From: Candidatus Hodarchaeota archaeon
GTDB taxonomy: Archaea; Asgardarchaeota; Lokiarchaeia; Sigyniarchaeales; SOKP01
Direction: 5' to 3'
Length of the DNA: 64,000 nucleotides
Assembly: GCA_048887225.1 (NCBI GenBank)
Contig: JBHLJY010000004.1
Location: forward strand, 96,001 to 160,000
Both the position numbers and the translations under genes were made by a program. Every line of letters starts with the position of its first letter. Positions within the stretch are counted from its first letter, which is position 1. Shown here piece after piece: positions 2,139-61,778 of this stretch. Under the pieces are notes generated by a model. It worked only from the letters and a program-made list of their open reading frames with translations, had not been told where the DNA came from and did no database searches.

Positions 2139-3794
2139 AGCTCCATCTTTCGCCGAAGAAACGTGAGTTCTGTAAAAATTTAAATATCCTCTTTTTATTT
2201 TAGGTTCTGGTTTTTTCCATTTTTTTAATCTATTGTTTATTTCTTCATCAGAAATCAATAAATTTAATTCACGCTTTTTAATATTAATTTCTATGAAATC
2301 TCCATCTTGAACTATTGCTATAGGTCCACCTTCTATTGCTTCCGGACATACATGTCCAATACAGGGTCCTCTAGTTGATCCCGAATATCTACCATCTGTA
2401 ATCATCGCAATGGAATCGCCTAATCCCATACCAATTAAGATTGCTGCCGGAATGGATAATTCCCTCATCCCAGGTGAACCTTTAGGTCCCTCATAACGTA
2501 TAACTAATACATCGCCTTCCTTTATCTTGTTAGACATCAAAGCATCATTTAAGTCCTCCTCGCATTCGAAAACTTTAGCCGGACCTTTATGATGGAGCAT
2601 TTTAAGATTCACTGCACTTTGCTTAATAATTGCTCCTTCTGGGGCTAAATTTCCTTTTAAAACAGCAATTCCTCCTTCTTTTTCTAATGGATTGTCAGGA
2701 TTTCGAATGATTTCACTTTCTTTTATTTCAATATCTTCAATGTAATCACTTAATCTCATTCCTAAAACATTAATTGTAGATAAATCTAAAAAATTTGATA
2801 ATTTTTTCATTAAGGCACCAACGCCTCCTGCCTTATGAAAGTCGGTGAGGTTGAAATTTGAAGCTGGTTTAAATTTAGCGAGTAATGGAACAGATTTACT
2901 TAAGCGCTCAAAATCAAAGTGGTTTAATTCCTCACCAATTTCATGTGATAATGCGCACATATGAAGTATCATGTTAGTTGATCCCCCAAATGATAACGCA
3001 ACCTTACAAGCATTCTCGATAGATGTATGAGTTATTAGATCTAATGCTTTGGTTCCTTTATCGACTAACTCGACTATAATATTTCCTGTTTTTTTGCTTA
3101 TCAGCTCTCGTTCTCTTCCAATTGCGCTTAATGTAGCACATCCCGGTAAAGAAAGGCCCATTGCTTCAACGATACATGCCATAGTATTAGCAGTTCCCAT
3201 CATATTGCAAGCTCCTGGAGAAAAACAAGTTTCGGACTCAATAATTTGGAACTCTTCTTTAGTAATTTTTCCAGCTTTATACAGACCTATTGCTTCTTTA
3301 ACATCACATGTTACAAAAGTTTTTCCTTTTAGAGGTCCATCTTTAAAAATCTTAGGCTCCATAATACCCCCGGTCATGAAAATAGTAGGAATGTTACACC
3401 TCGTTGCTGCTAATAACATCCCTGGTATTATCTTATCACAGGAACAGAGCATAACCATTCCATCAAAGCTATAAGCTTTAATTGTGCATTCAATTGAAGC
3501 TGCTATAATTTCCCGCGACGGTAAAACGTATTTGGAGAAATTTCCAGAATTAGCGATTCCATCGCAAATCGCAATGGTGTTAAACTCCATCGGAGTCCCT
3601 CCTGCTTCTTTCACTCCACTTTTAACAAATTTACTCAATTTTCGTAGATGAGAATGGCCAGGATTAATCTCATTCCAAGAATTAACAATTGCTATTCGAG
3701 GCTTTTTTAAATCTTCATATGAATATCCACAACCCCGATACAACGCTATTTCATACGCCTTTCTATAATCTAAATCATTATTTTCTGATGTCAT
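2124..3794 (-). CDS. ilvD: Dihydroxy-acid dehydratase, IlvD/Edd family
   Basis: [57 protein letters not shown]. Confidence 0.9.
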
Positions 3795-12901: not shown

Positions 12902-14302
12902 ATGACTGAAAAAAAAATGGAAATCAAATCACCTTCAAAAAAAAAAATGGCAGCATATGGATGTGGCCAAATATCAGATCAAGGAGCATACCAAGCCTTT
13001 ACATTATTAGTATTTACGTTTTATTTTACCATTGTTGAAATTAATGTTTTATATATCGCTATTGGCTTTATTATATGGTCTATTTGGAATAGCTTAAACG
13101 ATCCAATACTAGGATACTTTTCGGACAGAACACATACAAAATGGGGTCGTAGGAGGCCCTATATTATGGTAGCTCTAATACCATTAGGGGTAATTATGAT
13201 TTTGCTGTTCACACCCCCCTTAGTTATAGGCATAAAGGATGAAATTGCAAACTTTATATATTTTATCATTATAATTATCATTTTTGAATTATTTTATACT
13301 ATGTTTAGTTTAAATTTGACTTCATTGTTTCCAGAGGTATTTATTACTGAGGAAGAAAGGACGGCAGCAAACAATATAAGACAGGGTCTTCTTATCATTG
13401 GATTACTTTTTGCTTTTGTTTTGCCTGGATTAATAATCCCAGATTATACAAAATCAGAATATTTACCACAGTATTTTTTATTTGGCATAATAATAGGAAT
13501 AATTATCATTATCGGAGGCATTATAGTGCTAAGACTTGGTCCAAAAGAAAAAGCAGAATTTCGAGATGAGTATAAAAATGCACCCGGCTTAAAAGACTCA
13601 ATAAAATTATGCGTTAAGAGTAAATCGTTTATGTGGTATATTCCGGCAGAAATCGCTAATTGGTTTGTATATGGCATGTTAGCTGTAATTGTGATTCTTT
13701 ACGCTAAATTCGTGTTAGGCATTCAGGACACATTAATTCAAGCATTATTACTAGGAATTGCGTTTTTATCATCAGTTATTTTCATTACCTTATTATGGAA
13801 ACCTGTTGTTAGAAGAATAGGCCCTAGAAAATCTTGGTTGCTTTCAATGTCAATATGGATTATAACGCTTATACCACTCTTGTTTATTCAAGATCCTATA
13901 TCAGGAATGATTGTATTTTTCTTAGTTGGAATAGGTTTAGCAGGTTCTTTATATATCATCGATTTAATTATTTCGGACATTGTTGATGAGGACGAGTTGA
14001 ATACAGGAGTCCGCAGGGAAGCTGCATATTATGGTGTAAACGCTTTCTTTTTGCGACTTTCAACGGTATTTGTATTTATAGCCATAGGTTTGGTATTTAC
14101 TACAACTGGCTGGGGAGAGTACACCCCAAATCCTGGAACTGATGTAATTTTAGGATTAAGGATTTTAATGGCAGTTTTTCCATCAATAGCGTTATTAATT
14201 GCTATTTTAGTTATATATAAATATCCTTTGGATGGTGAAAGGCTCAGAAAGGTAAAAGAGGACTTACAAAAACTTCACGAAGAGAAAAAATCTAAAATCT
14301 AA
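12902..14302 (+). CDS. MFS transporter, glycoside-pentoside-hexuronide (MelB-like) family
   Basis: About 12 TM; NDPILGYFSDRTHTKWGRRRPY, DIVDEDE...RREAAYYG. Confidence 0.9.
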   Translation: MTEKKMEIKSPSKKKMAAYGCGQISDQGAYQAFTLLVFTFYFTIVEINVLYIAIGFIIWSIWNSLNDPILGYFSDRTHTKWGRRRPYIMVALIPLGVIMILLFTPPLVIGIKDEIANFIYFIIIIIIFELFYTMFSLNLTSLFPEVFITEEERTAANNIRQGLLIIGLLFAFVLPGLIIPDYTKSEYLPQYFLFGIIIGIIIIIGGIIVLRLGPKEKAEFRDEYKNAPGLKDSIKLCVKSKSFMWYIPAEIANWFVYGMLAVIVILYAKFVLGIQDTLIQALLLGIAFLSSVIFITLLWKPVVRRIGPRKSWLLSMSIWIITLIPLLFIQDPISGMIVFFLVGIGLAGSLYIIDLIISDIVDEDELNTGVRREAAYYGVNAFFLRLSTVFVFIAIGLVFTTTGWGEYTPNPGTDVILGLRILMAVFPSIALLIAILVIYKYPLDGERLRKVKEDLQKLHEEKKSKI

Positions 14303-14342
14303 TCTCTTTCTATTTTTTTTCTAAAATAAAAAAAAAGAATTT
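14203..14342 (+). repeat. ~140-bp direct repeat copy 1 (MFS 3' end plus T/A-rich terminator region)
   Basis: Matches 15020-15160 with 4 substitutions in the coding part and a 1-nt A-run difference. Confidence 0.95.
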
Positions 14343-14391
14343 GAATATAATTATTTTTTTACTTCTATTTTGATGTTTTACCTTTTATAGA

Positions 14392-14727
14392 TTACTCACG
14401 CTCCATTACTCCAGGTATTGCTTTTATAAACATCTGATTTAATTTCGTAGAATCTGCTTCATTTAATACCGGATAAGTCTCCATTGAAAATACACCCTGA
14501 AAATACATTGTAATTAGAGATGTCTCAACGAAGTCTTTTTCATCTATTTCATAAATAACAATACTTAAATTATTGTATGGGCAAAAATTTTGTGAAATTA
14601 TTTTTATTTTTGCCGCTGCAGCTAGTATTTCTTTCGGTGCTGTTCTATTCGGTAAAGATTGCGTTATTTGAAATGCTTCTCTTGCATTTTCAGGTTTCCA
14701 CCTAAAAATAGTTACATATCTAGCCAT
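14392..14727 (-). CDS. Small hypothetical protein, DUF3303-like
   Basis: 111 aa, GAGGT SD upstream; MARYVTIFRWKPEN...SMETYPVL resembles DUF3303-type proteins. Confidence 0.65.
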   Translation of the reverse strand: MARYVTIFRWKPENAREAFQITQSLPNRTAPKEILAAAAKIKIISQNFCPYNNLSIVIYEIDEKDFVETSLITMYFQGVFSMETYPVLNEADSTKLNQMFIKAIPGVMERE

Positions 14728-14827
14728 AAAATTTCAACCTCATTTTAATTTATTTTATTTTTTAATATTTTGATAGGAATCGCCTTTTCGTTCCTATAGC
14801 TTTTTTTTTGGATTTCATTTAAATTTC

Positions 14828-14874
14828 ATCCATAAATTTGGATTAAATAAAAAATTGACGAATAAGTATTTAAA
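14828..14874 (-). promoter_or_regulatory. Shared promoter: TATA (TTTAAATA), GTCAATTTTTT, degenerate palindrome
   Basis: Same module at 15567-15616 and 23926-23972; this copy lacks 2 nt of the palindrome. Confidence 0.7.
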
Positions 14875-15017
14875 TGTTTTACATTTTTGTAATAGGCGAT
14901 TTAGAAAGAAACTCAAGAAATTATCTATTTAGTTCAAGATATAAGACTCTATTTCTTATGATTTCTCTCTTAAGAACATCATTCCATTTAAAAGAAACTT
15001 ACTCAGAAATTTGTCGG
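14871..15017. repeat. 147-bp non-coding repeat, copy A
   Basis: Near-identical to 17172-17318; partial copy at 15613-15688. Confidence 0.95.
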
Positions 15018-15019
15018 AG

Positions 15020-15160
15020 TATTTTAGTTATATATAAATATCCCTTGGATGGTGAAAGGCTCAGAAAAGTAAAAGAGGACTTACATAAACTTCACGAAGA
15101 GAAGAAATCTAAAATCTAATCTCTTTCTATTTTTTTTCTAAAATAAAAAAAAAAGAATTT
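15020..15160 (+). repeat. ~140-bp direct repeat copy 2 (orphan MFS 3' end)
   Basis: Encodes ILVIYKYPLDGERLRKVKEDLHKLHEEKKSKI*, the MFS C-terminus, without the rest of the gene. Confidence 0.95.
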
Positions 15161-15203
15161 TAAATTTTAAATTACTAAGGCTTTTCTAGTTTTTATTGCC
15201 TCT

Positions 15204-15530
15204 TTATTCTGGCATCTTCATTCCAATCATTTCCAAGGCCTCTCCTACCTTGAACCTTACCTCTACAGTATAACTATATCCCTTAATATCATGGAATTTT
15301 GTCATATATTTTTGTTCAGCGAGTAATAATTCTTTTAAATTACCTTCCTTTACATCATGAACACCAGTAACTTCTATATAATCTTTTCTTGCTTTTACAG
15401 CATTTGGAATAATTTCTTTGGATAAACCTCTTATCGAGGATCTATATTCTTTAATAGTTTCAACGTATATCTTTGCAACTTCAGTACCCTGATTATACGG
15501 GAGAAAGCCAGTTGTAAACACATAGGGCAT
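15204..15530 (-). CDS. Small hypothetical protein (108 aa)
   Basis: GAGGT SD 6-7 nt upstream of ATG, shared promoter upstream, protein-like composition. Confidence 0.7.
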   Translation of the reverse strand: MPYVFTTGFLPYNQGTEVAKIYVETIKEYRSSIRGLSKEIIPNAVKARKDYIEVTGVHDVKEGNLKELLLAEQKYMTKFHDIKGYSYTVEVRFKVGEALEMIGMKMPE

Positions 15531-15566
15531 ACTTTTTACCTCAATTTTTATTTTTTAATTGGATTC

Positions 15567-15616
15567 AATCCATAAATTTATGGATTAAATAAAAAATTGA
15601 CAAAAAAGTATTTAAA
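15567..15616 (-). promoter_or_regulatory. Shared promoter with perfect 20-bp palindrome AATCCATAAATTTATGGATT (15567-15586)
   Basis: Palindrome read directly; TTTAAATA box about 30 nt upstream on the minus strand. Confidence 0.75.
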
Positions 15617-15688
15617 TGTTTTATATTTTTGTAATAGGTGATTCAGAAACAAAATCAAGAAATTATCTATTTTGTTCAAGATATAAGA
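15613..15688. repeat. 147-bp repeat, truncated diverged copy B
   Basis: taaatgttttatatttttgtaataggtgattcagaaac...ttcaagatataaga aligns to the first half of copies A and C. Confidence 0.85.
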
Positions 15689-15749
15689 TAGAAATAAAAA
15701 AAAAAATTATTAGGATTTTTATTATAATCTTAGCTAAACTTGCGCCTTT

Positions 15750-16784
15750 TTAATTAACTTTAACGATCCAGTCAAACTCATCCTTAATATCTAACCGCTG
15801 TATCCCCGTTAGTTTATTATAAAGTTTTAATGTGATTTTTCCGGGTTTTCGATTGTTAAAAGTTTTTGTTTTATCCTTCATGGTAATGGATCCTATAGGC
15901 GTAATGACTGCTGCTGTACCGGTACAAAATGCTTCAGTGCACGATTCGTTAAACAATTCTTTATAAGAAATATCCCTTTCTATAGTTTCGATGCCTATTT
16001 TCTTTTCAGAAATTTCCAATATAGATTTAAGAGTTATTCCTTCGAGTATCGTTCCATCCATTTTTGGTGTAATCAATTTATTCTCTATTATACAGCAAAA
16101 GTTTGCAGCACCAACTTCGTTTATATATTCCATGTGAACCGAGTCCAAATAAAGAATCTGAGAAAATCCCTTTTCTTTTGCTAATTTTGCTGGTTTCATA
16201 GTACCAGCATAATTACTACAGGTCTTTGAAAAACCTGTACCCCCTGGACTTGAACGCGTATATATATTTGAAATTTCCAAATCAATTGCTTTAAAGCCAT
16301 CTGGAAAATAAGGACCTACTGGTGAACTGTAAATTATGAATTTATATTCTTGTGCGGGTGCAATGCCAAGCATAGGACCACTACCAATCATCAAAGGCCG
16401 TATATATAAAGAACCACCACTGTCATATGGGGGTATAAAATCTACGTTTGCTTTGACGATTTGTTTAACTCTTTCAACAAATTCAATCTCATCATATCTC
16501 GGCATTAAAAGCCTATCAGCGCTTTTATTAAATCTTTTTGCATTCTCGTATGGACGAAATAAAGTTATTTCACCCTTTTTGGTTTTTAACGCTTTCATTC
16601 CTTCAAAGATTCCTTGACCATAATTTAATATACATGCTGCGGGAGATATTTCAAAAGACCCAAAAGGCAAAAATTTACCATCATCCCACTTACCATCCTT
16701 ATAATCTGAAATAAACATTGTATCAGTTTCAATGAATTCAAAGCTAAGATTATAAAAATCTATACCTAAATTTTTTGATTGCAT
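15750..16784 (-). CDS. ilvE: Branched-chain amino acid aminotransferase (fold-type IV)
   Basis: LNYGQGIFEGMKA, LYIRPLMIG, KTCSNYA (PLP Lys), EVGAANF, ILEGIT, CTGTAAVITPIG. Confidence 0.93.
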   Translation of the reverse strand: MQSKNLGIDFYNLSFEFIETDTMFISDYKDGKWDDGKFLPFGSFEISPAACILNYGQGIFEGMKALKTKKGEITLFRPYENAKRFNKSADRLLMPRYDEIEFVERVKQIVKANVDFIPPYDSGGSLYIRPLMIGSGPMLGIAPAQEYKFIIYSSPVGPYFPDGFKAIDLEISNIYTRSSPGGTGFSKTCSNYAGTMKPAKLAKEKGFSQILYLDSVHMEYINEVGAANFCCIIENKLITPKMDGTILEGITLKSILEISEKKIGIETIERDISYKELFNESCTEAFCTGTAAVITPIGSITMKDKTKTFNNRKPGKITLKLYNKLTGIQRLDIKDEFDWIVKVN

Positions 16785-16949
16785 TTTGATTTACTCTCTT
16801 TTATATTTTGATTTTTGAATAACCCCTAAAAAACAATGCTTAATTCCATGACCTCTTTCTATATAAAATTCCTTTAGAATTTTATTAACCCACAAGATCC
16901 CAAATCCGTAGAAAATTATTAAGAAAAAGTTAGGAAAAGCTATCTTGTT

Positions 16950-17042
16950 TTATAATACTACTGCAGCAGCGGCAGCATCAGCTGCAATATAGTCTAAATT
17001 AATTACAAACGCTTTAATAGTAATATTATAATTAGAGGTCAT
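16950..17042 (-). CDS. Putative ilvE leader peptide (30 aa): MTSNYNITIKAFVINLDYIAADAAAAAVVL
   Basis: Manual translation; ATG 31 nt downstream of the start of a BRE/TATA; Ala run plus I/V/L-rich; ends 165 nt upstream of ilvE. Confidence 0.65.
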   Translation of the reverse strand: MTSNYNITIKAFVINLDYIAADAAAAAVVL

Positions 17043-17065
17043 TATAACACAATTATTTTATAGTA

Positions 17066-17080
17066 TATTTAAACTTTATT
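17066..17080 (-). promoter_or_regulatory. BRE-TATA (AATAAAG-TTTAAATA) for leader/ilvE transcript
   Basis: Consensus archaeal TATA; spacing predicts transcription start at or near the leader ATG. Confidence 0.65.
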
Positions 17081-17171
17081 TGAAAAATGGGCATTTATTC
17101 CCGCGGATTATTGTCGGGAATAGATTTTTGATTTCTATCTCTAAAAGCTTCTTTTTATTAGATATTCTATA

Positions 17172-17318
17172 TAAATGTTTTACATTTTTGTAATAGGCGA
17201 TTTAGAAAGAAAATCAAGAAATTATCTATTTAGTTCAAGATATAAGACTCTATTTCTTATGATCCCTCTCATAAGAACACCATTCCATTTGAAAGAAACT
17301 TACTCAGAAATTTGTCGG
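17172..17318. repeat. 147-bp non-coding repeat, copy C
   Basis: Near-identical to 14871-15017; contains a perfect 9-bp hairpin TTCTTATGA/TCATAAGAA (17254-17277). Confidence 0.95.
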
Positions 17319-17572
17319 TGTTATATGATTTTTTAATAATTGCTGGTTTTTTATACCAAAATTGAAAAAAGATAGTAAATCTTAACCGAGTTTTGATTTA
17401 TATATTATTAACGCACTTTTAGAATAATGAAGAAATTTAAGGAGTATCTTTATGATTTTTTTGAAATGATAATTCTATTTCTTTTATTTAATCTCGAGAA
17501 ATATAGCAAGAAATTTGGAGATAATAATTTGAATAGAAATGAAAGAAAATAGAATTTAAATATAAAAATCTC

Positions 17573-18307
17573 TTAATGTATAACTATTTCTTCTTTTTCC
17601 TTTTTCATTATTTTAGAGATTTTTTTTATGACCTTTTTATGTGTTAATACATAACCGGTAAGCAAACCAAATGATTTTAAAGCAGCTTCATGAATCTCAG
17701 GGGCCCAAGCTGCGCAACAGTCTTCCACAATAACAACTTGAAAACCATAGTCAGCAGCCTCTCGTGCTGTTGCGTATACGCAAAAATTCGTCACTACTCC
17801 TGTTACTAAAACTGTCTCAATATCCATATTTCTTAAAAAACTATCAAGTCTTGTAGAAATGAAAGTTCCACTCGTGTTTTTCTGGATAACGAAATCCCTA
17901 TCTTCGGGCTTTAATTCATCAATTATATCGGAGCTGTGGTGAGAGATATAAGGAAATGCGACTTCTCCTACGAGATTTTTGGTAAAATCATTTAAAAACT
18001 TGACAGTTCGACTAATATCACTCCCATCAGGCATAAAACTCGAAAATTTTGTGTATATTACTGGGATTCTAACTTCATTACAATAATCGATCAATTTTCG
18101 TAGATTTGGAATAACTTTGTTTTCCACTTCCTCTACAAAATAATCTAATATTCCTGGAGTAATGTTATTCATTACTTTATATACAGCATAATCTTTCTGT
18201 ACTTGATATTTTTGCATATCAACAACAATCAAGGCTGTCTTTTTCGGTATCATATCATCTATTAGCCTTTGGTGAAATTTATAAAAATTATTAATCCTTT
18301 CCTCCAT
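17573..18307 (-). CDS. Isochorismatase-family cysteine hydrolase
   Basis: ALIVVDMQ (Asp), QKNTSGTF (Lys), GVVTNFCV (Cys); start ATG 18307 or GTG 18331. Confidence 0.88.
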   Translation of the reverse strand: MEERINNFYKFHQRLIDDMIPKKTALIVVDMQKYQVQKDYAVYKVMNNITPGILDYFVEEVENKVIPNLRKLIDYCNEVRIPVIYTKFSSFMPDGSDISRTVKFLNDFTKNLVGEVAFPYISHHSSDIIDELKPEDRDFVIQKNTSGTFISTRLDSFLRNMDIETVLVTGVVTNFCVYATAREAADYGFQVVIVEDCCAAWAPEIHEAALKSFGLLTGYVLTHKKVIKKISKIMKKEKEEIVIH

Positions 18308-18428
18308 AAAACCACATACTTTTTTTTTCACTAATTTGTAAATTTTGGATATATATGCTAATTTTAATACCTTTCAATTTAAAACTTATGGAAAGATAAA
18401 AAAAGGGTATCTTAAGAAAGAATTTAAA

Positions 18429-18662
18429 TTACGCTATGACTTCACTTTTTTCTAAGACCCAATTGTCAATTATAAAACTTTGAGTTAAATCTTTTGTGCT
18501 TTCAAATTTTGAGTGGATTTTTGATTTTGGAATCCATAATTCTTCTCCGCTCGCAAAATTAATGAGCAACGCTTTGGGAGTTTCGGCTTTTATTGAGCCT
18601 TCAAGACGAATGCACTCTTTGTTATCTATCGTAACTTCTTCTCTAACTAAAGTCTTTTTAAT
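18429..18662 (-). CDS. Small hypothetical protein (~77 aa), missed by ORF track
   Basis: Manual translation ...LVREEVTIDNKECIRLEGSIKAETPKALLINFASGEELWIPKSKIHSKF...FIIDNWVLEKSEVIA*; no ATG/GTG/TTG near the 5' end. Confidence 0.6.
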   Translation of the reverse strand: MKKTLVREEVTIDNKECIRLEGSIKAETPKALLINFASGEELWIPKSKIHSKFESTKDLTQSFIIDNWVLEKSEVIA

Positions 18663-18786
18663 AGTGAAATTACATAAATGTAAAATATTTTAATTAAAAT
18701 AACTGATTATTAATCATACTTCAAATTTATTATAAGAAATTCAAAATTGATAATAAAGGAAAAATTGCGGTAATTAACGCAGGATT

Positions 18787-21700
18787 ATGCAAACGGAAAA
18801 AGAAGAGGACTTATTAGAAAAGGCGAAACTTGAGGAAAAAGCATACAATTGGTTAGAAGCGGCTAAATTATACGAGAATGTAATAAACTCTTTTATGAAA
18901 AAAAACCTGCTTGAAATGGTAGCTGAAACTTATAAGAGATTAGGACATGCCAACGCACGAGCTGCTGATAAAGCAGACACAGCAGAAAAATATGTTGAAA
19001 TTAATAAAAAAGCGATAAAAGGTTATAAAAATGCGGCAAAAATCTTTAAGGAAGTTGCGAATAAAACCGAAGAATTGGAATGCGAGGCGGAAGCAACCCT
19101 CGTCAGTGGTTTTATTAAGAGCTCTATTAACGAAGCTAAAAGGGTTTTTGAAATTTCCCGCGAACTTTTCACCCAAGCGAGAGCTCTCTTTTCTAAGAAG
19201 AAAAAACAAGATGAAGTTCTAAGGATCTCAATTCGTGAATTAATAGCAATTTATTATCAAACAACCTGTTGTAGCGAAGGAAAGCTAATTGAGCAATTTA
19301 TTAAAGAAGCGAATGAAATTATACCTTTAGATACGATTATTTCTAATTTTAATATTCAATCTATTGCCAAAATATTGGCTTTTAATGTTTTAATAAATTT
19401 GAATCGAAATTATATTATAGATTTTAAATATGATGAGAGTACTAAGAGATATGTTCAGCAGGTTCTTTCTCTTTTTCGCGAACTAAAAAATTTAAAGCTA
19501 ATTGAAGGATGTAAAGATCCTAAAACCCTTGGATTGATTTATTTTGCAATTGGTCTTTGTTATTGTCTTTTCGGATATCAATATATTGAAGACGAGAGGA
19601 AACAGAGAGAATATCTTGACAAGGGTCTAGACTTTCTTAAAAAAAGTGTAGATTTGATAAGAAAAACAGGGGATAAACCTTTAATAATATATATAATATT
19701 CTGGTTGGATTGGTTCCTTTTCTTTACTGGTAGATATAAAGATCTTCAAAAGAGAATAATTAAAGATATTGAAGAGGTTTTGATGTTTGGAAAGATACTT
19801 TCGGGATTATTTTCAATTGGGGGTATATATGCGAATTTTTTGCCTACAATGTATTATACTGGTATGTCAACGTTAAGAGTTTTCACTGCGCGCCAGACAT
19901 CGTCATATGCTAATAAGGCAATTAAATATGCGAAGAATTGCTTGAAAATTTCTAAAAATTTACCCTTTTCTGCGATGGTTTATTGGCCGCTAACCTATTC
20001 ATACTCTTCATTAATCTATCTCGCAAAAGAAAAGAAAAAACAGGATGAATACGCCATTAAAATGCTTCAATCCGCAGAACATGCTAAAAACTTAGCGAAA
20101 AATTATGAAGAAGGGAGTGTTGTATCATCAAGCAACACTTCTCTCTATAAGGCTTATAAAACTCTCGCAGATCTGGCTAAAAGCGATGAAGAAAGAATTA
20201 AAATGCTATCTATTGCTTTAGATGCAGCTGAGAAATATATTCAGCATCCTTGGGAGTCTCCATCCGGTATAATTGAAGGTCAAATGCGGATAGGGCTTCT
20301 TTACGAAAAAATTGGTGTTTTAAGTGGAAAAGACGATAACTTAATAAAGGCAAAAGAGTTATTTTTTAAAATTATTGAGGAAAGTCTTGAAAGAGGGTAT
20401 AAATCGTACGCCGCCACCGCCGCCGAATACATTGCACGCATAGAGGATCGATTAGGTAATCACACTGCTTCTTCAAAATATTACGAGAAAGCCCAAAATG
20501 CTTACGCAGAGTTGTTGAAAAATCTAAGATATAGACTCTTAAAAAAGCGTGTTAATGAAAAAATGGATTACGCGAAGGCTTGGAGCTTAATTGAAAATGC
20601 AAAAGTATTTCATAAGAGGGAAAACCATTTAAAAGCTAACGAGAGCTATAAAAAAGCGTTGGAAATTCTTAAACAACTTCAAAACTTCAATTACGAAGCA
20701 CCATATTACCATGCTTGGGCATCTCAAGAGGAAGCTGAACAACTTAGCAAGCTTGAAAAACACGATAAAGCCATCGAGCAATACGAAATGACCAAAAACA
20801 ACTTTAATAATGCAATAAAATCAATGGAAGATATTTCTAAAAAATTTAAAGATAAATTTGCTCTAGAAAGGATCGATAAACTTAAAAAAGTAGCCAATTT
20901 AAGAATTAAATATTGTTCAGCCAGGTTACACGTTGAAAAAGCAAGAATTTTAGGAAAACAAGGTGAACACTACGCAGCGGCAGAATTATTTGCCTCCGCA
21001 GCTTCTGAATTTAGATACGTTTGTAATCTCTTTAAACTAGAGAGAGAACGAGCTGAACTTGAAGCTGTATATTATCTCTGTAGAGCATGGGAAACTATGG
21101 AGCTTGCGGAAAAATACGAAGACCCTGAAAGATTCGCTGAAGCGGCAAATCTTTTCGTAAAAGCAAGTAAACTTTTTCTTGACAGTAAATTGAAGTTATT
21201 AGCATCGGGCAACTCCATTTTTTGTCAAGCATTAGAACTCGGATGTAAGTTTGACGAGGCTCAAGAATCTGAAATTAAAGCACAATTATATACAAAAATC
21301 CGTTCGATGCTAAGAAAGGCTGCTTCTTCTTATGAAAAAGGTGGTTTTGAAAATGGAGGTAATTGGGCTTTAGCAACATCAACATATTTTGATGCAGCGT
21401 GGTCGCTAATAAGAGCGGACGAAGAATTGGAGTTTAACCAAAGAAAAGAGCTTCTTGGAGTTGGATCTGAGTATTTGAAATCTGCTGCTGAACTATTTAG
21501 CAAAGCAGGCTATAAAGATAAGGAAAAAGAGGTTTTAAAGCGCTTGAACATGGTGGAGAAGGAAGAAAAAATCATATTCTCCGCCTTAAACTCTATCAAA
21601 AAACCTACCATATCTAGCAGTACCGTAGGCATAATTGCTCCTTCTTGTTCCTTAGAAACCAGTCAATCTCCTAGATTAAATGAAGTGCGTCAGTTCACAG

Positions 21701-26398: not shown

Positions 26399-26467
26399 TT
26401 AGATAGAATTAGCTATTTCTAATAATACAAGTATTTTAGGCAATTTAAGCAAAACTAAAAATTATCT

Positions 26468-58835: not shown

Positions 58836-61778
58836 TTGATTCAAGTGTTAAGTGATAAGGAACAAAAAAAAATTTTTAAGGAAATTGCTTCAAAAGATCC
58901 AGATAATTATTTTCCTACTAAGGAACTTAGAGAATTAGGCTATATACGAAAACATTGTAGTTGTTGTGAAAATTATTTCTGGACGACTCATGAAGACCGT
59001 GAAGTTTGTGGAGATCCAGCATGCTCAGGTGGATTTCAGGTTGTAATAGATAATCCCTCTCCAGTTAAATTATCTTTTATCGATGTATGGAATAAAATAG
59101 TTGAGATTTTGGAGCCAAGAGGCTATAAACCAATAAATAGGTATCCTTGTGTCTCAAGATGGAATCCCACCTCAGAATTTACAATTGCTTCCATTTCTGC
59201 ATTTCAACCTTATGTTATAACTGGAGAAGTGGAACCTCCAGCTAAAAAACTTCTAATACCCCAATTCTGTTTGCGGTTTAATGACATAGAGAATGTAGGT
59301 TTGACGGGTTCACATTGCTGTGGCTTCGTGATGATAGGTCAGCATACGTTTGTTTCTCAGGAAGAATGGGATCAAGGGCAGCTTTTCATGGATATGCATG
59401 ATTTTATCCATAAAGGGGTAGGTCTTGCAAAAGAAGAGATCACCATTCACGAAGATAGTTGGGCTGGTGGAGGATCATTTGGTTGTTGTCTCGAGTTTTT
59501 TAGTAGAGGTGTCGAGCTCTTTAATCAAGTTTATACTATGTTTGAACAAACACCAGAAGGCCCACGTGAATTACAACTTAAAGTCTTAGATATGGGGCTT
59601 GGTCAAGAGCGTGTTGCGTGGTTTTCTCAAGGGACCCCTAATATGTATGAAGCTATTTTTCCCTATGTATTGTCAAAATTAAGAAAAATAACAAGGATCA
59701 AATTAGACTTAGACCTTTATAATAGATTTTCACAATATTCAGCTTATCTAAATATTGATGAAGTTGAAGATATGGATGCTGCTTGGCAAAAAGTAGCTAA
59801 CGAATTAAAGATAGGCGTAGATGAGTTAAAAGAAAAAATTTTACCTATGACGGGATTGTATTCAATCGCAGAACATGCCCGTAGCTTGCTTTTTGCGATT
59901 AACGATGGAAAGCTTCCTTCAAATGTGGGGGGAGGATATAATTTAAGGGTTATTTTTAGGCGTGCTATTAGTTTTATTGATAGTTTCAATTGGAATATTG
60001 ATATGGCAGATGTGTGTGTTTGGCATGCTGAAGAATTAAAAGGACTTTTTCCAGAAGTTTCGGAACATCTAGATGAAATTAGAGAAATTCTCGATGTCGA
60101 GAAAGAGAAATTTTATGCAACTAAGAAAAAAGCTAGAAAAATTTTAGAGAAGGTTATGAAAAAAGGTAAAATTTCCACAGAAACTTTAATTGAATTGTAT
60201 GATTCAAACGGAATTAGTCCCGATATGGTAAAAGAAGCGGCAAAGAAATACAATGTTATAGTAAAAATACCTGATGACTTCTATTCATTAGTTGTTGAAA
60301 AACACGAAAAAATTGAACAAATTCATGCTACAGAAAGAAGAATGGAATTAGATTTGAAAGGAATTCCTGAGACTGAATCTCTATATTATTATGATTATAC
60401 TAAGATTTCCAATGAAGCAAAAATTCTGAAAATAATTGATAGTATGGTAGTATTAGATAAATCAGTTGCGTATCCAACTTCAGGAGGTCAGCTACACGAT
60501 ATTGGAACAATCAACGGCCAAAAATTCAGTGATGTTTTCAAACAAGGCAACTACATTATTCATGTATTAGATGAAACACCTAATTTTAAGGAAGGCGACA
60601 AAGTTAAAATTGAAGTAGATAAATCTTGGCGTACTCAACTTTCCCAACACCATACAGCAACTCACATTGTTAATGCTGCTGCTCGAGAGGTGTTAGGCAG
60701 CCATATAAATCAAGCAGGTGCTAAAAAAACGCTTAAAAGTTCACATCTGGATATTACCCATTTTGAACAAATTCCGCGTGAAAAGCTCAAAGAAATTGAG
60801 AAAAGAGCAAATGATATCGTAAAACAAGAAATTGACTTATACTTAGATTTTTTACCTAGAACAGAGGCAGAACAAAAATATGGAATGACAATTTATCAGG
60901 GCGGAGCAGTACCTGGTAAGAGGGTTAGGATTGTAGAGGTCCCTGGTATAGATGTAGAGGCGTGTGGTGGAACCCACCTTAACAATACAGCAGAAACTGG
61001 AAATATAAAACTTATAAAATCGCAAAAAATACAAGATGGCGTAGTGCGATTAAAATTTACAGCCGGTAAAGCAACTCACCGAATGCAGAAAAAGGATGAG
61101 CAAATTTTGGATGATTTACAGTCCATAATAAATGTTGATTCTAAACTACTTGTTGGAAGGATTAAAGAACTTTTAGAAAAAAGAAATAAACTCGCATATA
61201 AAGCACCAAAAGCAACAAAAGATGATTTAGAACTAACATCCGAAGAGGTATTTGAAGGAGATATTTTACATGAACTAACAAATTACCTAAATGTGAAAAA
61301 AGACGACTTAATTTCCAAAATTAAAAAAATATTAGATGAATGGGAAAACGCAAAACAAAATTTATCCCAAAAAGCCTATTATTTTAGTAATGAATTTAGG
61401 AGCGATTTAAATAAAAATGCATATTATTATCTTGGTGCTAAAGTTGTTACTTCAAGAATTTGGGGTGTTGATCAAAAATCTGTTCAAGATATAAGTTCCA
61501 ATGTTATGAAATATTCTGATAATACTATCGCAATGTTTTACAATGAAGACAACAAAGGTACTTATGTTACTGGGATGGTTAGTGCTGATCTCGCCAAAAA
61601 AGCACATATAAATATGGGCAACATTGTCAAGCAAGTGACCAGTACTTATCATGGGAGGGGTGGTGGGAGTAGAGATTATGGATCTGGTTTTGTACCTAAA
61701 ACTTATGCAACTACTGATCAACTTATGAAATATACACAGAAGCATTTCTTTAGTGAGGAAATGGAAGATGATGAATGA
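58836..61778 (+). CDS. alaS: Alanine--tRNA ligase (archaeal type)
   Basis: N-terminal Cys cluster, FTIASISAFQP, QFCLRFNDI, LDMGLGQER, HHTATH editing motif, EACGGTH, GRGGG DHHA1. Confidence 0.95.
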   Translation: MIQVLSDKEQKKIFKEIASKDPDNYFPTKELRELGYIRKHCSCCENYFWTTHEDREVCGDPACSGGFQVVIDNPSPVKLSFIDVWNKIVEILEPRGYKPINRYPCVSRWNPTSEFTIASISAFQPYVITGEVEPPAKKLLIPQFCLRFNDIENVGLTGSHCCGFVMIGQHTFVSQEEWDQGQLFMDMHDFIHKGVGLAKEEITIHEDSWAGGGSFGCCLEFFSRGVELFNQVYTMFEQTPEGPRELQLKVLDMGLGQERVAWFSQGTPNMYEAIFPYVLSKLRKITRIKLDLDLYNRFSQYSAYLNIDEVEDMDAAWQKVANELKIGVDELKEKILPMTGLYSIAEHARSLLFAINDGKLPSNVGGGYNLRVIFRRAISFIDSFNWNIDMADVCVWHAEELKGLFPEVSEHLDEIREILDVEKEKFYATKKKARKILEKVMKKGKISTETLIELYDSNGISPDMVKEAAKKYNVIVKIPDDFYSLVVEKHEKIEQIHATERRMELDLKGIPETESLYYYDYTKISNEAKILKIIDSMVVLDKSVAYPTSGGQLHDIGTINGQKFSDVFKQGNYIIHVLDETPNFKEGDKVKIEVDKSWRTQLSQHHTATHIVNAAAREVLGSHINQAGAKKTLKSSHLDITHFEQIPREKLKEIEKRANDIVKQEIDLYLDFLPRTEAEQKYGMTIYQGGAVPGKRVRIVEVPGIDVEACGGTHLNNTAETGNIKLIKSQKIQDGVVRLKFTAGKATHRMQKKDEQILDDLQSIINVDSKLLVGRIKELLEKRNKLAYKAPKATKDDLELTSEEVFEGDILHELTNYLNVKKDDLISKIKKILDEWENAKQNLSQKAYYFSNEFRSDLNKNAYYYLGAKVVTSRIWGVDQKSVQDISSNVMKYSDNTIAMFYNEDNKGTYVTGMVSADLAKKAHINMGNIVKQVTSTYHGRGGGSRDYGSGFVPKTYATTDQLMKYTQKHFFSEEMEDDE

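Follow-up and report, generated by a model that had tools for sequence, protein, structure and literature searches.

A putative leader-peptide attenuator with two alternative predicted RNA folds ahead of an ilvE paralog in an Asgard archaeon

What is the role of a short, alanine-rich open reading frame (ORF) that stands directly ahead of an aminotransferase gene in an archaeal genome? The question is raised by a 64,000-nucleotide (nt) stretch of DNA from Candidatus Hodarchaeota archaeon (assembly GCA_048887225.1, contig JBHLJY010000004.1, positions 96,001-160,000), called the window in the following, whose minus strand carries a small upstream ORF (uORF) followed by an ilvE paralog, the gene of a branched-chain amino-acid aminotransferase (BCAT) (Table 1). 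An earlier note on this DNA had described a 30-codon ORF with seven Ala in codons 20-27 and nine Ile, Leu or Val residues over the whole peptide, a promoter box 31 nt from its ATG and a gap of 165 nt between its stop codon and ilvE, and all of these are present. Comparison with related genomes points, with somewhat better than even probability, to a cis-acting leader-peptide attenuator that would gauge charged tRNA (mainly tRNA-Ala and tRNA-Val, to some extent also those for Ile and Leu) and set the number of transcripts that reach the ilvE paralog.

The host genome comprises 3.27 Mb with a GC content of 30.5%, and Ala and Val each account for 5.1% of its proteome. Among 3,094 small intergenic ORFs genome-wide the uORF ranked first in Ala content and no other ORF like it was found, so that the Ala run does stand out, as had been claimed for it. 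No second copy of the leader DNA was found elsewhere in the host genome. Leaders of relatives were gathered in three ways (from the regions upstream of their ilvE homologues, by a pattern scan of species-representative genomes, and by the same pattern applied to metagenomes, the pattern being the most conserved leader block). This yielded 17 distinct leaders that carry the uORF, from at least four genera (g1, g4, g6 and g9) of one Promethearchaeota family and from metagenomes; the conserved uORF with Ala and branched-chain codons before ilvE orthologues to which the earlier note had looked is thereby found. The uORFs are 26-37 codons long and agree in their location and in the distance to a TATA box, and ilvE follows after 146-180 nt in 16 of the 17 leaders. 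The remaining one (L089, metagenome contig Ga0114922_10307453) is a complete ilvE-type leader with an RpiR-like helix-turn-helix gene, and not ilvE, 263 nt past the stop codon, an arrangement which may be a rearrangement or an assembly join. In a maximum-likelihood tree the 13 non-identical ilvE genes that bear the uORF form one side of a single branch (support 89/75), which requires one change, and this clade is the sister of uORF-less paralogs of the same family. The terminal branches of the tree measure 0.2-0.4 changes per site, and the leader has therefore outlasted considerable divergence. A further leader (L195, G006:C178:13777-13876; MTSNYNISIKPFVNSLDYPAADAVAAAVLL) is very like that of the window, has no ilvE or other long ORF downstream and sits 3 kb from the uORF-less ilvE paralog of its genome; it may be an orphaned leader.

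Signs of translation are found in the frame and in the codon content. The uORF frame is open in all 17 leaders, with one to eight stops in each of the other two frames, and despite the differing lengths each uORF holds one frame from ATG to stop. In the middle of the uORF the sequence is poorly conserved, whereas the composition is conserved. Over the last 16 codons of the 17 uORFs, Ala accounts for 34% (5.1% in the proteome), Val for 19.5% (5.1%), Ile for 13% (10.6%), Leu for 12.5% (9.7%) and Phe for 2.2% (5.3%), with Asp, Arg and Lys interspersed along the tails. This profile fits a codon-based sensor and not a membrane helix of an AT-rich organism, which bears on the suggestion that the uORF is a micro-protein gene, its product being for instance a hydrophobic partner of the aminotransferase, with RNA helices that merely tune translation or mRNA stability. 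A gene of this kind would be in line with the conservation of the ORF, its linkage to ilvE and the hydrophobic C-terminal half of the peptide, but is improbable: composition is conserved and not sequence or length; Asp, Arg and Lys interrupt the tail; the enriched Ala and Val use GC-rich codons in a GC-poor genome, in place of the Ile, Leu and Phe of a membrane helix; the conserved N-terminus is accounted for by RNA pairing, and on the same scaffold the tail varies with the downstream gene (both described below); and no Pfam family matches the uORF peptide.

Regarding the promoter, the TATA box occupies positions -31 to -24 relative to the A of the uORF ATG, and the spacing shows zero indels across the 17 leaders; in the wider leader family described below, a TATA-like hexamer lies at -35 to -27 in 60 of 63 members. 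Because of this spacing the transcript is expected to begin with the A of the uORF AUG or with a neighbouring base, and by the counts of the 17-leader alignment the helices formed by S1 (Table 1) end at base 1-2 of the uORF. The uORF is probably leaderless, and the box-to-ATG geometry that had been taken earlier to fit a leaderless transcript proves to be conserved. When a matrix made from the 17 uORF promoters was used to look for an internal ilvE promoter between uORF and ilvE, none was conserved, the best matches being weaker than the uORF promoters and at non-conserved positions. The downstream blocks S5 and S7 covary with the uORF start, which places the uORF and the region just before ilvE on one RNA; together with the lack of a conserved internal promoter this favours the view, already implied by the earlier note, that ilvE is transcribed through the uORF leader.

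Further upstream, a palindrome of the type listed in Table 1 occurs at the same alignment position in 10 of the 17 leaders and is perfect in one of them (L113, ATGGGAAAAAATTCCCAT); it is a candidate transcription-factor site, and ilvE may therefore also be under protein control. The leader promoter is abutted by the third copy of a repeat of about 200 nt (17140-17340; other copies at 14839-15039 and 15581-15688), which ends with a TATA-like box of its own (CATTTATATA, about 17172-17163). This box could give a second upstream start, in which case the uORF would be leadered in some transcripts.

The RNA of the leader is predicted to form helices that involve the start and stop codons of the uORF. 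Two of them were predicted unaided by RNAalifold on the 17 leaders, namely S1 (AUGACCUC) with S5 (GAGGUCAU) about 190 nt downstream, designated P1, and S2 with S4, designated P3; P2, in which codons 5-8 pair with the last sense codons and the UA of the stop codon, came from single-sequence folds. The mean duplex energy was -13.5 kcal/mol for P2 (-3.5 kcal/mol with a shuffled partner), -12.0 kcal/mol for S1:S5 (-4.1 kcal/mol), -10.4 kcal/mol for S2:S4 (-4.2 kcal/mol) and -10.6 kcal/mol for the CU tract with S5 (about -4 to -5 kcal/mol with shuffled partners), and cognate pairs were stronger than non-cognate pairs.

These helices combine into two folds. In fold A, composed of P1, P2 and P3, 87.3% of the alignment cells pair, as compared to 36-60% after a slide of the partner by 1-3 columns, and among these related sequences there are 10 pairs with compensatory changes and 32 double-change cells, a number matched by 0 of 500 shuffles. 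Covariation is seen in S1:S5 (column pair 5:242, CG7/UG7/UA3; 8:239, CG15/UA2), at three positions of the anchored table of P2 (CG8/AU7, CG9/AU5/UG3 and GC9/AU3) and in P3 (128:215, AU7/GC6/GU2; 134:196, UA9/GU5/UG2). In fold B, the tracts GCUUUUCC and CUUUUUCU pair with the purine-rich S5-S6 (AGAAAGAG and GGAAUUAAGC) and S1 pairs with S7 (covarying pair 5:275, CG7/UG6/UA4); 82.2% of the cells pair, as compared to 46-60% when slid, and the 13 double-change cells in the same related leaders were likewise matched by 0 of 500 shuffles. The pairing of S6 with S3 is less well supported than the other helices. Fold A leaves the U-tracts single-stranded in the P3 loop, whereas fold B pairs them. Since pairing of S5 with S1 rules out its pairing with the U-tract, the two predicted folds are mutually exclusive, and their arms overlap both the start and the stop codon of the uORF.

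Transcripts of growing length were folded for ten leaders, the lowest-energy fold being taken in each case, and in 10 of 10 leaders the order was P2, then P3 once S4 was out, P1 once S5 was out, fold B once S6 was out, and S1:S7 last. The 261-nt leader of the window folds better than its shuffles (z = -3.2). After the stop codon every leader has 3 +/- 1 U-runs, and 15 of the 17 have a run of U5 or longer, so the U-rich tracts which the earlier note had pointed out at this place are a conserved property. In 11 of the 17 leaders, 14 nt (0-based offset) separate the first base of the stop codon from the first U4; in the window, U4, U5 and U4 runs follow at 16938-16912. Two further helices, S2 with the second U-run and S3 with S4a, showed only a weak excess over shuffles and were rejected.

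Table 1. Features of the ilvE leader region (window coordinates; S and P denote RNA segments and helices).
Feature	Position	Strand	Remarks
Palindrome-like GGGAATAAATGCCCA (GGGA-N7/8-CCCA)	17088..17102	-	About 12 nt upstream of BRE/TATA; candidate transcription-factor site
Promoter, AAAG (like a B recognition element, BRE) + TATA box TTTAAATA	17066..17077	-	TATA box at 17073-17066; box kept in 17/17 leaders
Leader-peptide uORF MTSNYNITIKAFVINLDYIAADAAAAAVVL	16950..17042	-	30 codons + TAA; ATG at 17042, TAA at 16952-16950; probably leaderless
S1 AUGACCUCU	17034..17042	-	uORF 5' end and start codon; pairs with S5 or S7
P2 5' arm UAUAAUAUUACU	17019..17030	-	Codons 5-8; pairs with P2 3' arm
P2 3' arm AGUAGUAUUAUA	16951..16962	-	Last base of codon 27, last three sense codons, UA of stop
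S2 AACAAGAU	16942..16949	-	Directly after stop codon; 5' arm of hairpin P3
U/C-rich tract cluster	16910..16940	-	In P3 loop; complementary to S5-S6; typical archaeal terminator signal
S3 GCUUUUCC	16940-16933	-	Part of cluster
CU tract CUUUUUCU	16929-16922	-	Part of cluster
UUUU	16915-16912	-	Part of cluster
GGA	16907-16905	-	Can pair with UCC of S3
S4 AUCUUGU	16892..16898	-	3' arm of P3
S5 AGAAAGAGGUCAU	16848..16860	-	Pairs with S1 (fold A) or tract CUUUUUCU (fold B)
S6 GGAAUUAAGC	16838..16847	-	Pairs with S3 GCUUUUCC in fold B; 70.6% of cells paired
Second U-run UUGUUUUUU	16836-16828	-	U4 or longer in 13/17 leaders
S7 AGGGGUUAU	16827-16819	-	GGUCAU-like second copy; alternative partner of S1
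ilvE paralog, type II BCAT, 344 amino acids	15750..16784	-	ATG at 16784; Aminotran_4; presumed regulated gene

The ilvE leader has homologues before other genes. The leuS upstream regions of relatives of the same genus hold uORFs such as MISNNNMKNSLSLQILSKVLLLLLL, and leuS and ilvE leaders have in common the N-terminus, the P2 design, the post-stop hairpin and a AAAGAGGUCA block. A covariance model of the part common to both (R1) yielded 64 matches in 46 of 61 family genomes and zero matches in five genomes of the sister families f2 and f4, three of which are single-contig; every R1 match ends a uORF of 20-37 codons. The matches were sorted by downstream gene and the composition of the last ten uORF codons was determined. 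The shares of Ala, Val, Leu and Ile (in this order) were 42%, 24%, 16% and 10% before ilvE (n=17), 8%, 15%, 58% and 1% before leuS (n=16), 1%, 45%, 38% and 0% before the gene of a 45-amino-acid protein (n=15), and 0%, 58%, 22% and 8% before an acyl-CoA dehydrogenase gene (n=4). Ala-rich tails are found only before ilvE, which lends support to the hint, given in the earlier note, that the enzyme supplies alanine; Leu runs are found before leuS, the gene of the leucine-charging enzyme. The pairing at the S1:S7 position covaries between the classes, AUGAUUUC facing GAAAUC in leuS leaders and AUGACCUC facing GGGGUU or GAGGUC in ilvE leaders. No other argument for the codons themselves being sensed is as strong as this combination of one scaffold with gene-specific codon runs.

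The same observations bear on a different kind of element, namely an RNA whose structure would itself recognise a ligand, a protein or a tRNA, as riboswitches and T-boxes do, and in which the open frame would be a by-product. This is the least probable of the readings considered, although strong covarying helices, two alternative folds and a candidate protein-binding palindrome upstream would all suit it, since the frame is open in the 17 leaders as well as in 63 family members, length changes keep the frame while the other frames are closed by stops, the start codon coincides with the position where the transcript is predicted to begin, the codons of the tail agree with the gene that follows, and no match to Rfam was obtained at E values up to 1. 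The Rfam search (cmscan) covered positions 14000-19000 of the window and 4,227 families, and the leader matched none of the covariance models of the curated Leu, Thr, His and Trp leaders and the T-box. No tRNA genes were found in the window or in 16 related loci.

As for the presumed regulated gene, the product of the ilvE paralog scored above the NCBIfam equivalog cut-offs of both NF009897 (409 bits, cut-off 307) and TIGR01123 (335 bits, cut-off 250); the two ilvE paralogs of the host genome share 70% identity. The catalytic domain of ketol-acid reductoisomerase (KARI; IlvC, KARI_C) was not found in the host genome, which is 98% complete. An IlvD/Edd-family dehydratase is encoded in the window at 2748-3704 (minus strand), and two LeuA-like genes lie elsewhere in the genome.

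In the proposed attenuator, transcription would start at or beside the A of the uORF AUG, and a ribosome would translate the 30-codon uORF while the polymerase advances. A ribosome held at the Ala or Val codons near the uORF end would keep P2 open and cover S2, and queued ribosomes would cover S1. Such a stall would favour fold B, in which the U-tract terminator (the presumptive aCPSF1/FttA binding site) is hidden, and the polymerase would read through into ilvE. With charged tRNAs plentiful, the ribosome would depart fast, fold A would form, and the exposed U-tracts would bring transcription to an early end. Binding of aCPSF1 to U4 tracts has been reported, and the orthologue from Lokiarchaeota behaves likewise (PMC8716108). 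That stalling turns ilvE on is inferred from the poly-Leu homologue that precedes leuS, for which only this logic is homeostatic and the reverse would defeat itself. Fold B is preferred as the read-through state because the first U-cluster is kept in all leaders and the second U-run is not, and because the regulatory codons reach the stop codon, where a stalled ribosome would cover S2. A terminator of bacterial type, made of the fold B hairpin and the second U-run, was considered first and then downgraded, as this U-run is short or missing in 4 of the 17 leaders; by eye, it also looked absent from the leuS leaders of genus g1.

An inverted logic is unlikely, though the least so of the alternatives. 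Here a ribosome in pace with the polymerase would shield the U-tracts and exclude aCPSF1/FttA, so that plenty of Ala and Val would mean read-through, while a stall would uncouple the two and transcription would end at the U-tracts; the ilvE paralog would be catabolic and would be switched off whenever protein synthesis requires its substrates. The start of the U-cluster at 14 nt from the first stop base in 11 leaders, which corresponds to the leading edge of a terminating ribosome, agrees with this logic, as do the missing KARI_C and the homologous poly-Val leader before the gene of acyl-CoA dehydrogenase, an enzyme typical of branched-chain catabolism. A steric model in which FttA and the ribosome exclude each other on the polymerase has moreover been proposed (PMC11616081). 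Yet in the 16 cases in which the same scaffold precedes leuS with a poly-Leu tail, a stall that means off would be a vicious circle, and the covarying helices S1:S5, S1:S7 and S2:S4 would be without a function under the inverted logic.

Several points weigh against an attenuator in which stalling means on. With a ribosome-sized mask, equilibrium folding gives no consistent switch (regardless of the mask, S1:S5 prevails until S6 is present, and fold B from then on), which means that a switch, if there is one, has to be kinetic. In 4 of the 17 leaders the second U-run after S6 has no U4 or longer run, so a terminator of hairpin plus U-run is not general, and hairpins are not a general requirement of archaeal termination (PMC8716108). 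The leader sequences are related, and the shuffle tests consequently overstate independence. The standard route to Val, Ile and Leu looks incomplete, and in view of the missing KARI catalytic domain the aminotransferase may be catabolic; the homologous poly-Val leader before acyl-CoA dehydrogenase likewise fits the opposite logic. Translation of the uORF and termination in the leader are predictions from sequence comparison. On the broader scale, chances are about even that a modular leaderless attenuator runs a whole regulon in this Asgard family, with tails swapped per target (Ala/Val before ilvE, Leu before leuS, Val before the genes of acyl-CoA dehydrogenase and of small proteins) and a U-tract aCPSF1/FttA terminator hidden or exposed by ribosome dwell.

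In bacteria, attenuation by leader peptides is a textbook mechanism, and it requires that translation be coupled to transcription. Bacterial leader peptides of this kind include ilvL of the E. coli ilvGMEDA operon, ivbL of ilvBN, leuL, thrL, hisL and trpL, as well as pheM before pheST. Like these, the ilvE leader has a short ORF in the 5' leader that is enriched in codons of amino acids linked to the gene behind it, mutually exclusive predicted helices that overlap the end of the ORF, and U-runs downstream, and one scaffold is reused before a metabolic or biosynthetic gene and a tRNA synthetase gene. In contrast to them, it belongs to an archaeon, in which the polymerase is Pol II-like and termination proceeds without reliance on hairpins; its uORF is probably leaderless and would contribute its own start codon to the switch; Ala codons predominate; neither sequence nor Rfam relates it to the bacterial leaders; and the terminator is most likely a U-tract/aCPSF1 site that is hidden or exposed and not a hairpin plus U-run. 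The tnaC leader of E. coli is one of the uORFs that act through factor-dependent termination, and TnaC senses free tryptophan via the nascent peptide. The resemblance would lie in the position of the ribosome at the end of the leader ORF, which decides on the access of a termination factor to the RNA just downstream (the role proposed here for the U-tract and aCPSF1). The ilvE leader differs from tnaC in that it points to sensing via codons and tRNA charging, because its tails vary in sequence and composition alone is kept. In mycobacteria, leaderless polycysteine short ORFs reportedly attenuate cysteine genes (bioRxiv 10.1101/834739). They resemble the ilvE leader as attenuators that respond to an amino acid and in that the operon mRNA opens with a short leaderless ORF containing a series of cognate codons, and differ from it in being bacterial, in the amino acid concerned and in the lack of homology.

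In the literature library searched, no paper was found that reports leader-peptide attenuation in archaea, and a review of archaeal transcription-translation coupling does not mention attenuation. What the analysis adds to the earlier note is that helices overlap the start codon and the stop codon of the uORF, that two alternative folds are predicted and that homologous leaders precede leuS and other genes. If the regulon-wide reading is true, it would be the first ribosome-mediated transcription attenuation shown in archaea, resting on an archaeal or eukaryote-like termination machine; should the element work as proposed, it would imply functional ribosome-polymerase coupling in Asgard archaea and a regulatory use of U-tract plus aCPSF1 termination. 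Alongside the conserved uORF and the two covarying folds, tail codons that change with the target gene amount to a built-in natural experiment. The tie between alanine and one BCAT paralog is also a lead to the real substrates of the enzyme in an organism where the standard branched-chain pathway seems absent.

Other amino-acid-biased small ORFs of the host genome were considered as candidates and set aside; they comprise a few His-rich ones without a meaningful downstream gene. No Trp-rich ORF was found before trpB2 of the host genome, and nothing before alaS, ileS, valS and metS. The window itself contains an alanyl-tRNA synthetase gene at 59109-60626 (plus strand), with no Ala-rich leader ORF in the 450 nt upstream of its open frame.

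Among the remaining members of the leader family, the second one of the host genome lies on contig C23 at 16371-16481 (minus strand; L184:1622-1732) and has the uORF MISNNTTLNASLLKVLILVL, which is followed by a 65-amino-acid protein ending in ...EIEDEIKLGYLWKRYSKKSK that has no Pfam match. In several relatives (L173, L175, L176, L163 and others) poly-Val/Leu leaders stand before the conserved 45-amino-acid protein, which ends in ..PAE..I...IAW, and about 400 nt past it a protein of 56-70 amino acids with the motif EIEDEI.(L/M)GYLW is often encoded; neither matches Pfam, and both are evidently tied to branched-chain amino-acid status. Poly-Val leaders (e.g. ..SLVDVVVVVLL) directly precede the acyl-CoA dehydrogenase gene in the relatives L180, L194, L192 and L206, which links the leader family to branched-chain acyl-CoA metabolism. 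The leuS gene of the host (contig C17, ATG at 26451) is without a family leader; at -246 to -171 it is preceded by a different small ORF, MESKPKTAAEPIDTLILLIVISVL, the end of which is rich in Leu, Ile and Val.

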